Assembly: GCF_029227855.1 (NCBI RefSeq)
Contig: NZ_CP074356.1
Reading direction: 5' to 3' (one strand)
DNA length: 64,000 bases
Source of the DNA: Escherichia coli
Lineage (GTDB): Bacteria; Pseudomonadota; Gammaproteobacteria; Enterobacterales; Enterobacteriaceae
This document shows, one piece after another, positions 17,619 through 22,373 of the stretch (within the stretch, counting starts at the first letter, position 1; each line of letters begins with the position of its first letter). The translations under genes were made by a program, and so were the position numbers. The notes below the pieces were generated by a model. It saw nothing but the letters and a program-made list of their open reading frames with translations. It searched no databases and was not told the DNA's origin.

Positions 17619-17732
17619 TTACCCTGAACTGACGATACAACAAAGGCGCAACGCTTTTGAGATAAAGGATCGATGCTTTCGCTGCTTTTACCCTCTACCA
17701 TTAGGCTAATTGCGACGAGAAAGGGACGACCT

Positions 17733-17862
17733 ATGAATACTAACGTTTTTCGACTGCTCCTGCTGGGAAGCCTGTTCAGCCTTAGCGCCTGTGTGCAGCA
17801 AAGCGAAGTGCGACAGATGAAACACAGCGTCAGCACGCTGAACCAGGAGATGACGCAACTCA
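17733..17862 (+). pseudogene. yajI: 5' fragment of lipoprotein gene yajI interrupted by an insertion sequence
   Basis: Signal peptide plus lipobox (MNTNVFRLLLLGSLFSLSAC) and about 43 codons match YajI, then the reading frame runs into IS-derived sequence. Confidence 0.8.
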
Positions 17863-17905
17863 TTGACATCCTCCACGCCCTGAAGGACGTGGATCCCTGC
17901 TACGT

Positions 17906-19114
17906 TCAGGCTGTCGCCTGAATCATTTCGGTGGGTTCCTGCTTCAACGGGCGGCCTGACTGCACCATCTCTCCACAGGCAAGAACGGCGTGCCCCGCCG
18001 CTAAAATGTTACGAGCGCCATTTACATCGGCGTTCGCTGTATATCCACATACCTGGCATCTGAATTGACTTTGTGACAGGCGATTTTCTTTCGCTGTATG
18101 ACCACAGCACGCGCAACGCTGACTTGTGTACGCTGGCGGAACAGCAAGCACCTGACCGCCACTCCAGAGCTGCTTGTACTCAAGCTGGCGGCGCATTTCA
18201 TACCAGCCCTGATCCAGTATCGAACGGTTTAAACCTGATTTTGCCCGGACATTGCGCCCCGGCTGGCTGACCGTACCCGCTGCTGACTTTGACATGTTAC
18301 TGACCTTCAAATCCTCAATGACTATCATTGCGTGGTTTTTGCTGACGGTCGTTGTGACTTTATGAAGGTAGTCCCTGCGGATATTTGCGATACAGGAATG
18401 CAGTCGCTGTATTTTGCGTTTCTGCTTCTGCCAGTTGTTGCTGAATTTGACCTTGCGGCTTAACTGTCGCTGAAGTCTCGCCAGCTTCTTCTGGTTTTTC
18501 TGAAAACTGTTTACAGGCTCAAAGACTGTGCCATCTGACAGCGTGGCGAGTTTAGCCACGCCAGCATCCAGCCCGACCATTGATGCTGAAGGGTGAACCG
18601 GAGTTGATACTTCACTTTCTGTCTGAATACTGATGTACCACTTACCGCAGGACTGGCAGACCGTGACATTTTTCACAACACCCGTGACCTGACGGCTATT
18701 CCGGTAGCGCATCCAGCCAAGTTTCGGCAGAAAAATACGGCTGTTTTCCTGATCGAGCTTAACGCCCTGCGGGTAGCGGAATGCATCATTCTGTCCCCGC
18801 TTTTTGAATCGGGGAAAAGCAGCCCGCTTCCGGAAGAAGTTTTTGTAAACCCGCTCAAGGTCTTTCAGTGACTGTTGCAATGGCTGTGAGGGCGAATCTT
18901 TAAGCCATTGCGTTTCAGTGGCGTTTTTCCACTCAACCAGCCAGGAAGCCATTTTCCCGTAAGGGATGTATTTATTACCGGCCTCATGATTCTCATTCTG
19001 AAGCGCCAGAGCACGATTGAAAACGAAACGACATGCGCCTGCGAAGCGCCTCATTTCACGCTCCTGTTGACCACCGGGTCTTAACTGGAATTTAAATGCC
19101 TGTAGTCGTTTCAC
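17906..19114 (-). CDS. tnpB: TnpB (IS605 OrfB-family RNA-guided endonuclease), apparently intact
   Basis: 402 aa, GTG start; RuvC-like motifs [18 protein letters not shown] and [10 protein letters not shown] plus zinc finger CACCGH...CQVCG. Confidence 0.9.
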
Positions 19115-19121
19115 AGGCCAA

Positions 19122-19600
19122 ATGATACTTTGGTCTGTGAAAAAAGAAACCGATATCCGGCGTGGAAGGCATTGTGTTTTCCTGATGCATGTTCACCTGG
19201 TCTTTGTCCCAAATACCGACGCCAGATTTTTGACCATGACGCGACAGAAAAACCACGCACTTACTTTTCAGATGTATGTGCTGATTTTGAAGCTGAACTG
19301 GTTGAAATGGATGGCGAACCAGATCACGTCCATTTGTTAATTAACTATCCTCCCAAACTGGCGATATCCAGTCTGGTAAACAGCCTCAAAGGCGTATCGG
19401 GTAGGTGACTGCGACGAGATCGACCAGATATTGCAGTCAGGTATTACTACAAAGGCGTTTTGTGGAGTCCTGGCTATTTTGCCAGTAGCTGCGGAGGTGC
19501 GCCAATATCCGTCATCCGCCAATACATTGAACAACAGCAAACACCTGGTCAGGTGGAAAACCGCGCCTTATATCCCCGCCCTGAAGGACGGGGTTTTACG
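19122..19600 (+). pseudogene. tnpA: IS605-type tnpA (Y1 HuH transposase) remnant, disrupted by a frameshift and an in-frame stop
   Basis: HuH motif and downstream conserved region (HVHLLINYPPK...SLKGVSGR, then WSPGYFASSCG) split over reading frames with a TGA at 19406-19408. Confidence 0.6.
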
Positions 19601-19614
19601 GCGCACCGGATAAA

Positions 19615-20019
19615 GAAACAGTCAAAATCACTCAGCAAAACAGGCTGAATGCAAAATCCAGCAGTGGGGTTTACCTTCTGCCTGGAGCGAAAACACCAGC
19701 AAGACTGGAAAGCCAGATCGGTACTTTACGTATGTCGCTGGTGAATATTACGCCTGATACAGATGGCACCACCCTGACGCTACGTATTCAGGGCGAGTCG
19801 AATGATCCCTTGCCCGCATTCAGCGGAACTGTTGAATATGGGCAAATTCAGGGAACAATAGACAACTTTCAGGAAATCAATGTGCAGAATCAATTGATTA
19901 ACGCCCCTGCCAGCGTCCTCGCCCCCAGCGATGTTGATATTCCGTTACAGTTAAAGGGTATTTCTGTGGATCAGTTAGGCTTTGTACGTATCCACGACAT
20001 TCAACCTGTTATGCAGTAA
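19615..20019 (+). pseudogene. yajI: 3' fragment of yajI
   Basis: In-frame translation ETVKITQQNRLNAKSSSGVYLLPGAK...IHDIQPVMQ matches the C-terminal part of YajI. Confidence 0.8.
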
Positions 20020-21771: not shown

Positions 21772-22230
21772 TTACTTACGGCCCGTAAACGGGCTGCCCG
21801 GATAGGGAATCGATAACTGCTCTCCCATTTTATCCTCTTCAAGCTGGTGCTTTATGTAATCCTGTATCTTCGCCGTGTTCTTACCCACTGTATCGACGTA
21901 GTACCCTCTGCACCAGAACTCCCTGTTCCTGTATTTGAATTTCAAATCACCAAACTGCTCGTAAAGCATCAGACTGCTTTTCCCTTTCAGATATCCCATA
22001 AACCCGGATACGCTCATTTTAGGCGGGATCTCCACAAGCATATGGATATGATCTGCACAGCATTCAGCTTCCAGAATCCGTACGCTTTTCCACTCACACA
22101 GCTTTCTCAAAATACTGCCTATTGCTCTACGCTTCTCTCTGTAGAACACCTGTCTTCGGTATTTTGGCGCAAAAACTATGTGATATTTACAGTTCCATCG
22201 GGTGTGCGCTAAGCTCTTTTCGTTCCCCAT
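21772..22230 (-). CDS. tnpA: IS200 transposase TnpA (Y1 HuH tyrosine transposase)
   Basis: Product MGNEKSLAHTRWNCKYHIVFAPKYRRQVF...HIHMLVEIPPK...RGYYVDTVG recognised as near-identical to IS200 TnpA. Confidence 0.9.
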   Translation of the reverse strand: MGNEKSLAHTRWNCKYHIVFAPKYRRQVFYREKRRAIGSILRKLCEWKSVRILEAECCADHIHMLVEIPPKMSVSGFMGYLKGKSSLMLYEQFGDLKFKYRNREFWCRGYYVDTVGKNTAKIQDYIKHQLEEDKMGEQLSIPYPGSPFTGRK

Positions 22231-22234
22231 TGGG

Positions 22235-22306
22235 ACCCCCTTTTGATTTCTTGTTTGACACTTGCAGTTGCCAGACCGCAAGGTGTTTTAACAAATCAAA
22301 AGGGGT
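22235..22306 (-). promoter_or_regulatory. IS200 5' UTR stem-loop that sequesters the tnpA ribosome-binding site
   Basis: Inverted repeat arms at 22235-22255 and 22290-22306; the arm next to the start codon contains the Shine-Dalgarno AAGGGGG. Confidence 0.55.
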
Positions 22307-22373
22307 TTTAATAACTGGCTCAAAGCTGAAAGCTTTCCGGAACCCCCTGCCTAGCTGGGGGTTTTCTGTGCAC

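Follow-up and report, generated by a model that had tools for sequence, protein, structure and literature searches.

The elements IS605, IS606 and IS608 of Helicobacter pylori encode a Y1 HUH transposase, TnpA, together with TnpB, and carry subterminal hairpins instead of terminal inverted repeats. They insert 3' of a fixed tetranucleotide without target duplication; the right end (RE) of IS608 terminates in TCAA and its target is TTAC, and in IS605 the tnpA and tnpB genes are divergent. TldR-type derivatives of TnpB have lost the RuvC triad (preprint PMC10705468). The TnpB protein of ISDra2 is an established RNA-guided nuclease (Karvelis 2021, PMC8612924). According to the preprint of Meers et al. 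(PMC10055086) most tnpB genes have no working tnpA nearby, and tnpA is found near only ca. 25% of tnpB genes. [quoted passage not shown]

The locus described here lies in a window, the whole stretch of 64,000 nucleotides of E. coli DNA that was analysed, which corresponds to the cyo-yajR-thiI-dxs-ribD-nrdR-yajI-tsx-yajD-secDF-phoBR-sbcCD-phoA-ehaB region. Alignment with the uninterrupted yajI gene of strain AHB4 (L002) showed that yajI is split by an insert of 1,747 bp, positions 17863-19609. The empty site in AHB4 reads ...GACGCAACTCA|ATAAAGAAAC..., whereas the window has the left junction ...GACGCAACTCA|TTGACATCC..., with the yajI flank matching AHB4 up to 17862, and the right junction ...GGCGCACCGG|ATAAAGAAAC..., with a match from 19610 onward. 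An initial sequence-only reading had delimited the insert as 17863-19614; the left end was correct, but the true right junction, 19609/19610, is 5 bp nearer, because the bases ATAAA that had been assigned to the element are target sequence common to other copies. A target-site duplication was sought in the empty-site alignment and no duplicated bases were found, a check that the same reading had proposed. The 5' fragment of yajI (17733..17862, plus strand; 43 codons including the signal peptide, and 1 nt) and the 3' fragment (19610..20019, plus strand) measure 130 nt and 410 nt, together the 540 nt of the intact gene. The gene is destroyed by the IS609 insertion. The insert has the yajI halves, nrdR and tsx as neighbours.

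Over the yajI/IS609 segment the window is 100% identical to strain JNEC-KY178 (NZ_AP045174.1). In this RefSeq record PGAP labels the yajI fragments as 'DUF3251 domain-containing protein, missing C-terminus' (5') and 'SadB/YajI family lipoprotein, missing N-terminus' (3'), tnpB as 'RNA-guided endonuclease InsQ/TnpB family protein' and tnpA as 'frameshifted; internal stop'. Among 5,426 complete E. coli genomes the insertion in yajI is present in 340 (ca. 6%) and the remainder carry the short allele; no intact yajI allele naturally holding the 1.75-kb segment was found in this set, so that the segment is not native to the gene. By itself the yajI::IS609 allele is ordinary, being an annotated insertion that knocks out an orphan SadB-family lipoprotein gene in a small fraction of genomes.

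On the basis of genome comparison and PGAP labels, the insert is IS609, an element of the IS200/IS605 family with the divergent tnpA/tnpB layout of the IS605 type, which bears out and specifies the family assignment of the earlier reading. The element (17863..19609) is oriented such that its top strand, which is also the sense strand of tnpB, is the minus strand of the window. Identity over the full length is 98-99% with IS609 copies at seven other chromosomal loci; the locations include ydcO (the insQ copy of K-12), yeaQ, a tetR gene by ytfB, yedK, yfeD-gltX and yidI. The copy at the tetR gene by ytfB occurs, among others, in O157:H7. Intact copies elsewhere carry the PGAP label 'IS609 family transposase'. 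Homology with the other copies stops exactly at 17863 and 19609, and a search for junctions not coinciding with the ends of other IS609 copies gave none.

Both ends of the element have the features expected for this family and neither carries a terminal inverted repeat. RE (17863..17905, minus strand) contains an imperfect hairpin at 17872-17893, with a 9-bp stem in the DNA fold that covaries in relatives, and terminates with 5'-TCAA-3' at 17866..17863. The left end (LE, 19553..19609, minus strand) was located by DNA folding, by motif search and by its hairpin at 19573-19594, which repeats the RE hairpin in direct orientation with 90% identity. Within the 64-kb window the hairpin motif is confined to these two ends. 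Directly 5' of LE lies 5'-TTAT-3' (19610..19613, minus strand; ATAA on the plus strand), the target or transposon-adjacent motif (TAM). It is present in the empty site and is part of yajI, not of IS609. All 19 copies compared, at eight loci with otherwise unrelated flanking sequence, have the same tetranucleotide next to LE. For the plus strand of the window a GC skew of -0.028 ± 0.0065 was measured, a single observation, which places the top (minus) strand of the element on the lagging-strand template; this placement is consistent with the single-strand, replication-coupled insertion known for the IS200/IS605 family.

With ends, hairpins and the TTAT target complete, it could be thought that the element is an autonomous copy that is currently mobile. 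The state of tnpA makes this exceedingly improbable. The tnpA pseudogene, which encoded a Y1 HUH transposase, is located at 19122..19552 on the plus strand, as defined by alignment with the intact copies L003 and L005, and starts 7 nt from the start of tnpB on the opposite strand. It is spanned by two short plus-strand ORFs, which match the IS200/IS605 transposase model NF033573 with E-values of 5e-22 and 3e-5. The divergent remnant with a frameshift and a stop that had been recognized earlier was confirmed by comparison with L003: one A is missing between 19208 and 19209, in codon 30, and at 19406-19408 TTA is replaced by TGA, which introduces a stop at codon 96 (L96*). At the 3' end the pseudogene has CAG (19550-19552) where intact copies have the stop codon TAG. 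Intact IS609 TnpA is a protein of 143 amino acids with the HUH motif at H69-V-H71 and the catalytic tyrosine at position 135. The frameshift is upstream of H69-V-H71 and the premature stop is upstream of Tyr135, and no single reading frame contains the N-terminal part together with both the HUH motif and the tyrosine; the window copy is therefore non-autonomous, unable to excise or move by itself. Rescue would need both programmed frameshifting and stop read-through, and the PGAP annotation has the same lesions. An autonomous insertion sequence was rejected on these grounds.

In contrast to tnpA, the tnpB gene (insQ; 17906..19114, minus strand, ORF 19114..17906) is intact and encodes a protein of 402 amino acids with a GTG start. 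The protein matches the NCBIfam model NF040570 'RNA-guided endonuclease TnpB' with an E-value of 1e-114 and 383.8 bits (cut-off 100), and its residues 3-376 match the ISDra2 TnpB structures 8bf8/8exa (E=7e-54). The earlier statement that the RuvC motifs and the zinc finger are preserved holds on alignment with ISDra2: the triad D183/E267/D363 corresponds to D191/E278/D361 of ISDra2, and both CxxC pairs of the zinc finger (C334-x-x-C337 and C353-x-x-C356) are kept. Relative to the consensus of eight IS609 copies the TnpB of the window has several non-synonymous differences, including A89V, S153C, R318S and K350Q; of all its changes A89V is the only one private to the window copy in this comparison. 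Literature searches for experiments on IS609 TnpB/InsQ or its omega-RNA yielded none. To judge from these similarities, IS609 TnpB together with its predicted omega-RNA most likely forms an RNA-guided nuclease.

TnpB also matches Cas12f/Cas12u models in PADLOC. These matches reflect homology only; neither the 1.75-kb insert nor its immediate surroundings were found to contain a CRISPR repeat array, tnpB is enclosed by transposon ends, and a type V CRISPR effector of the Cas12f type was rejected. The strength of the same matches, and the persistence of tnpB at fixed sites in the majority of E. coli, usually beside a dead tnpA, would also suit a domesticated TnpB that serves the host, for example as a TldR-like RNA-guided repressor or as a defence nuclease. 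We consider this very improbable. The RuvC triad is intact, unlike in TldR-type derivatives, complete LE and RE still flank tnpB, the guide is dictated by the flank and differs at every locus, and the gene is accompanied neither by a CRISPR array nor by a conserved partner gene; besides, the insertion at yajI occurs in only a minor part of the genomes. In view of the intact catalytic triad, the two intact ends and neighbouring genes that differ from locus to locus, a TldR-like domestication was rejected. Hence, of the proposal that such a nuclease may persist as selfish or domesticated, the selfish part is reasonable and has modest support; domestication is unsupported, since the catalytic residues of TnpB are kept, the transposon ends are intact and the flank determines the guide, as it would in an ordinary selfish element.

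The predicted omega-RNA scaffold occupies 17863..18013 on the minus strand, overlapping the last ca. 35 codons of tnpB and RE, with 18013 as a provisional 5' limit. At gathering thresholds Rfam contained no omega-RNA family matching the window, the sole match being STnc490. This STnc490 match belongs to a neighbouring IS200C. A relaxed Rfam search gave HgcC (21.3 bits), RAGATH-18 (25.4 bits) and sot0042 (17 bits) on the minus strand at 17850-18033, all below their gathering scores; these three are RNAs associated with the 3' ends of tnpB genes. Folded as a single RNA sequence, the 3' region of tnpB did no better than shuffled sequences (z=-1.5), and for this reason covariation in relatives was used instead.

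For the covariation analysis, 46 loci resembling IS609, with 63-98% protein identity, were collected from contigs of prophages and viruses, and the last ca. 150 nt up to the conserved GGAGGATGTCAA were aligned. Homology among these relatives ends abruptly after GTCAA (GTCAC in some) and the flanks diverge completely beyond it; in this alignment the stop is an independent mark of the transposon boundary. The consensus structure, derived from 17 relatives, has 7 helices with 45 pairs in total. Compensatory double changes were seen in 7 of these pairs, and of 500 column shuffles only 2 gave as many. The covariation score was 0.121 versus 0.093 for shuffles, none of 500 reaching the observed value, and 0.025-0.053 for controls with slid partners; sliding the partners by 1-3 columns reduced pairing from 98% to ca. 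40%. The comparison favours a conserved, omega-RNA-like structure at the 3' end of tnpB. It is qualified by the close relationship of the sequences and by the fact that helix 7, the last one, is also recognized by TnpA as a hairpin in DNA, so that the part of the covariation located in the RE hairpin does not by itself prove an RNA.

Given the known architecture of TnpB omega-RNAs (PMC8612924, PMC10055086) and the mapped RE boundary, we infer a guide of ca. 16 nt, 5'-TGAGTTGCGTCATCTC-3', which corresponds to the yajI flank just outside RE (17847..17862, minus strand). On the tnpB strand the empty yajI site reads 5'-TTAT|TGAGTTGCGTC-3', and in the uninterrupted gene the predicted guide sequence sits directly 3' of TTAT, which would act as the TAM of IS609 TnpB. 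The combination of TTAT and the guide sequence in empty yajI is the donor joint that would be expected as the target of TnpB under the model of Meers et al. (PMC10055086).

These observations can be combined in a mechanism, in which single-stranded IS609 DNA would have been inserted into the lagging-strand template at yajI, 3' of TTAT, destroying the gene without a target duplication. An omega-RNA would be transcribed from the 3' end of tnpB and RE and run into the yajI flank, and TnpB with this RNA would form an RNA-guided nuclease, provided that both are expressed, that the RNA is processed and that the complex is active. Its target would be the uninterrupted yajI allele, with TTAT as TAM followed by the guide sequence, and repair of the cut allele from the IS-bearing copy would retain the element at its site. 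An uninterrupted allele may arise through excision by a TnpA acting in trans or may arrive by recombination; with tnpA dead, retention lacks a substrate unless one of these occurs. Very probably, then, the insert is a non-autonomous IS609 copy of which the TnpB-omega-RNA complex would cut uninterrupted yajI and thereby retain the element, with the nuclease activity and its role in retention as the conjectural parts.

The distribution of IS609 among E. coli genomes provides a further view of tnpA and tnpB. An IS609 copy with a coverage of 80% or more is present in 4,858 of the 5,426 complete genomes (ca. 90%), with a median of 2 and a maximum of 9 places per genome and ca. 11,000 places in total. 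Among 19 copies compared, TnpB is full length in 15, shortened to 398 amino acids in one and to 385 in another, and frameshifted in two, whereas native TnpA of 143 amino acids is encoded by just two copies and a read-through form of 166 amino acids by two more. The dead transposase and conserved nuclease noted at yajI thus represent a common arrangement. This supports a pattern, as judged from these alleles, in which TnpB outlives TnpA and which is already known for the IS200/IS605 family; the configuration is accordingly not new, as it concerns a named E. coli element and an arrangement described in the literature as the norm.

Distinct variants were counted against a consensus, at first for eight copies representing an even spread of the matches. 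In these, tnpB had 31 synonymous and 29 non-synonymous variants (ratio ca. 0.27) and tnpA had 6 synonymous and 19 non-synonymous variants including nonsense (ratio ca. 0.94). With 19 copies the counts were 35 and 51 for tnpB (ratio ca. 0.42; synonymous excess p=1e-4) and 8 and 27 for tnpA (ratio ca. 1.0); the direct contrast of tnpB with tnpA in the 19 copies gave a Fisher p of 0.09, which is not significant alone. From these counts tnpB looks constrained, albeit only moderately, and tnpA looks neutral.

The tnpA lesions of the window copy are themselves widespread. The L96* allele is present in 3,370 copies in 2,726 genomes, as against 4,464 copies with a sense codon, and so is not private to the window; it is also the stop in tnpA of the K-12 IS609. 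For the 1-bp deletion, 328 places were counted in 240 genomes, IAI39, CE10 and SMS-3-5 among them; both yajI and yfeD-gltX have copies with it. In JNEC-KY178 the yfeD-gltX site was inspected for IS609 and is empty. The same strain has a second place matching IS609 besides yajI, at another location than yfeD-gltX. IS609 copies at the same locus differ by ca. 1.6% and are mosaics of variants from other loci; the divergence implies that the insertions are old, with a long residence time, and the mosaicism means that there has been either gene conversion between copies or movement of dead copies in trans. The copies with the 1-bp deletion were considered as a clade, which was rejected: they too are mosaic, with ca. 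28 differences, as divergent as any pair. Because they do not form a clade, they give no clean estimate of selection on tnpB after the death of tnpA.

These data bear on the possibility that the window copy is an inert fossil, in which transposase and nuclease are both functionless, tnpB has merely escaped a disabling mutation so far and the constraint on it dates from the mobile period of the family. Its tnpA is dead, two of the 19 copies have a frameshifted tnpB and two more are shortened at the C-terminus, the TnpB of the window has itself acquired several substitutions, the addition of copies with the dead tnpA allele gave 22 non-synonymous and only 4 synonymous tnpB variants, and the K-12 element never moved in mutation-accumulation lines (PMC5009759). 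Against this, full-length tnpB far outnumbers native tnpA in spite of the long residence at single loci, the synonymous excess in tnpB has no counterpart in tnpA, and every catalytic and zinc-binding residue of TnpB is kept. On balance, we regard a fossil as possible but rather unlikely, and retain the reading of a non-autonomous copy with a nuclease that would act on uninterrupted yajI.

A more far-reaching variant is that tnpB is selected at fixed sites largely without TnpA, by a drive that cuts uninterrupted alleles brought in through homologous recombination. We put this forward tentatively and consider it improbable, even more so than the fossil. If it were true, copies with a dead tnpA would persist as long as their lineages, and the occurrence of the doubly dead tnpA at both yajI and yfeD-gltX would be due to trans-mobilisation or to nuclease-stimulated gene conversion. 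E. coli genomes have about two copies of IS609 each, at a few old, fixed sites, with tnpA usually dead and tnpB usually intact. The species is therefore well suited as a natural system in which to examine whether TnpB nucleases have activity and are under selection without a transposase, and the predicted TAM and guide make the question directly testable.

Among known systems, the closest is the IS609 of K-12 (insQ/ydcM and a tnpA pseudogene by ydcO), which is 98% identical over its full 1,748 bp, has the same ends and TTAT target and shares L96* with the window copy. The two differ in location, the K-12 copy being situated between ydcO and ydcL and the present one in yajI, and in the extra 1-bp deletion in tnpA of the window copy. 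Similar to IS605, IS606 and IS608 of H. pylori, the window element has hairpins, lacks a target duplication and uses a tetranucleotide target; it has the RE terminus TCAA in common with IS608 and the divergent tnpA and tnpB genes in common with IS605. Unlike IS608 it adjoins TTAT instead of TTAC, it cannot be aligned with the H. pylori elements as DNA, and its tnpA is a pseudogene.

The TnpB of ISDra2 from Deinococcus radiodurans (PDB 8exa, 8bf8, 8h1j) is a distant homologue that can be aligned with IS609 TnpB end to end, with the D/E/D triad and the zinc finger common to both. As in ISDra2, the 3' end of tnpB has a putative structured, RNA-like region that abuts the flank; the TAM is TTGAT for ISDra2, whereas TTAT is predicted for IS609. 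The IS1341-type elements, which carry tnpB only, and the retention model of Meers et al. likewise combine a tnpB and an omega-RNA that look functional with the lack of an active tnpA in cis, and as in that model (PMC10055086) the predicted guide of the window copy matches the donor joint that would be recreated by precise excision. Whereas tnpA is absent from the IS1341-type elements, in the IS609 copy described here it can still be recognized as a pseudogene that decayed recently.

The doubly inactivated tnpA allele of the IS609 element, carrying both a 1-bp deletion and the L96* stop, is common to two chromosomal loci in different strains, yajI and yfeD-gltX. The alleles were compared between copies of IS609 at yfeD-gltX (L019-L021) and those at yajI, namely window positions 19122-19552 and the copies L017, L018 and L022; some yajI copies have the L96* allele and others the sense allele. 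The occurrence of the same dead allele at two loci, together with the presence of both alleles at one of these, implies that gene conversion took place among IS609 copies or that dead copies were mobilised in trans. The genome of strain JNEC-KY178 (NZ_AP045174.1) harbors one further IS609-matching place besides yajI; its yfeD-gltX region (1487332-1489190) was inspected for a second copy and the site was found to be empty. In the window, CAG replaces the native tnpA stop codon TAG (19550-19552), as it does in many other IS609 copies, and in CAG copies without an earlier lesion (L008, L012) this gives a read-through ORF of 166 amino acids which extends through the left end (LE) into the flank. 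The divergent starts of tnpB (GTG) and tnpA (ATG) are both spanned by a 14-nt inverted repeat (19109-19142; arms TTTCACAGGCCAAA and TTTGGTCTGTGAAA, spacing 6 nt), a possible operator or stem with a regulatory role.

At the other end of the element, the truncated yajI continues into the right end (RE) (17673-17921, plus strand), producing a 62-amino acid ORF with a signal peptide, whose ATG lies at 17733. RNA initiated at the yajI promoter would be antisense to both the guide and the scaffold of the predicted omega-RNA. In the IS609-like relatives L033, L056 and L057 from IMG/VR contigs, the last ca. 60 nt before GTCAA differ: the hairpin of the RE is longer and of another kind, and the helix before it is rearranged. 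These relatives retain the scaffold further upstream as well as the GGAGGATGTCAA end. Further IS609 relatives possess a terminal GTCAC in place of GTCAA.

Another IS200/IS605-family element, IS200C, is located 2.2 kb away between yajD and secF (21772-22363, minus strand). It encodes an intact tnpA (21772-22230) and contains a full-score Rfam match to STnc490 (22240-22363, 141 bits). In strain IAI39, a ParD/ParE toxin-antitoxin pair occupies this position. Between acpH and malZ, an interval that is not known to carry a gene in K-12, the window encodes a hypothetical protein of 485 amino acids (28711-30168, minus strand), for which searches against NCBIfam and PADLOC gave no match. Adjoining yajO is a gene for a pentapeptide-repeat protein (11731-13303, plus strand), frameshifted according to the annotation of the identical RefSeq record; the gene gives weak matches to PipB2/Qnr-type repeats.
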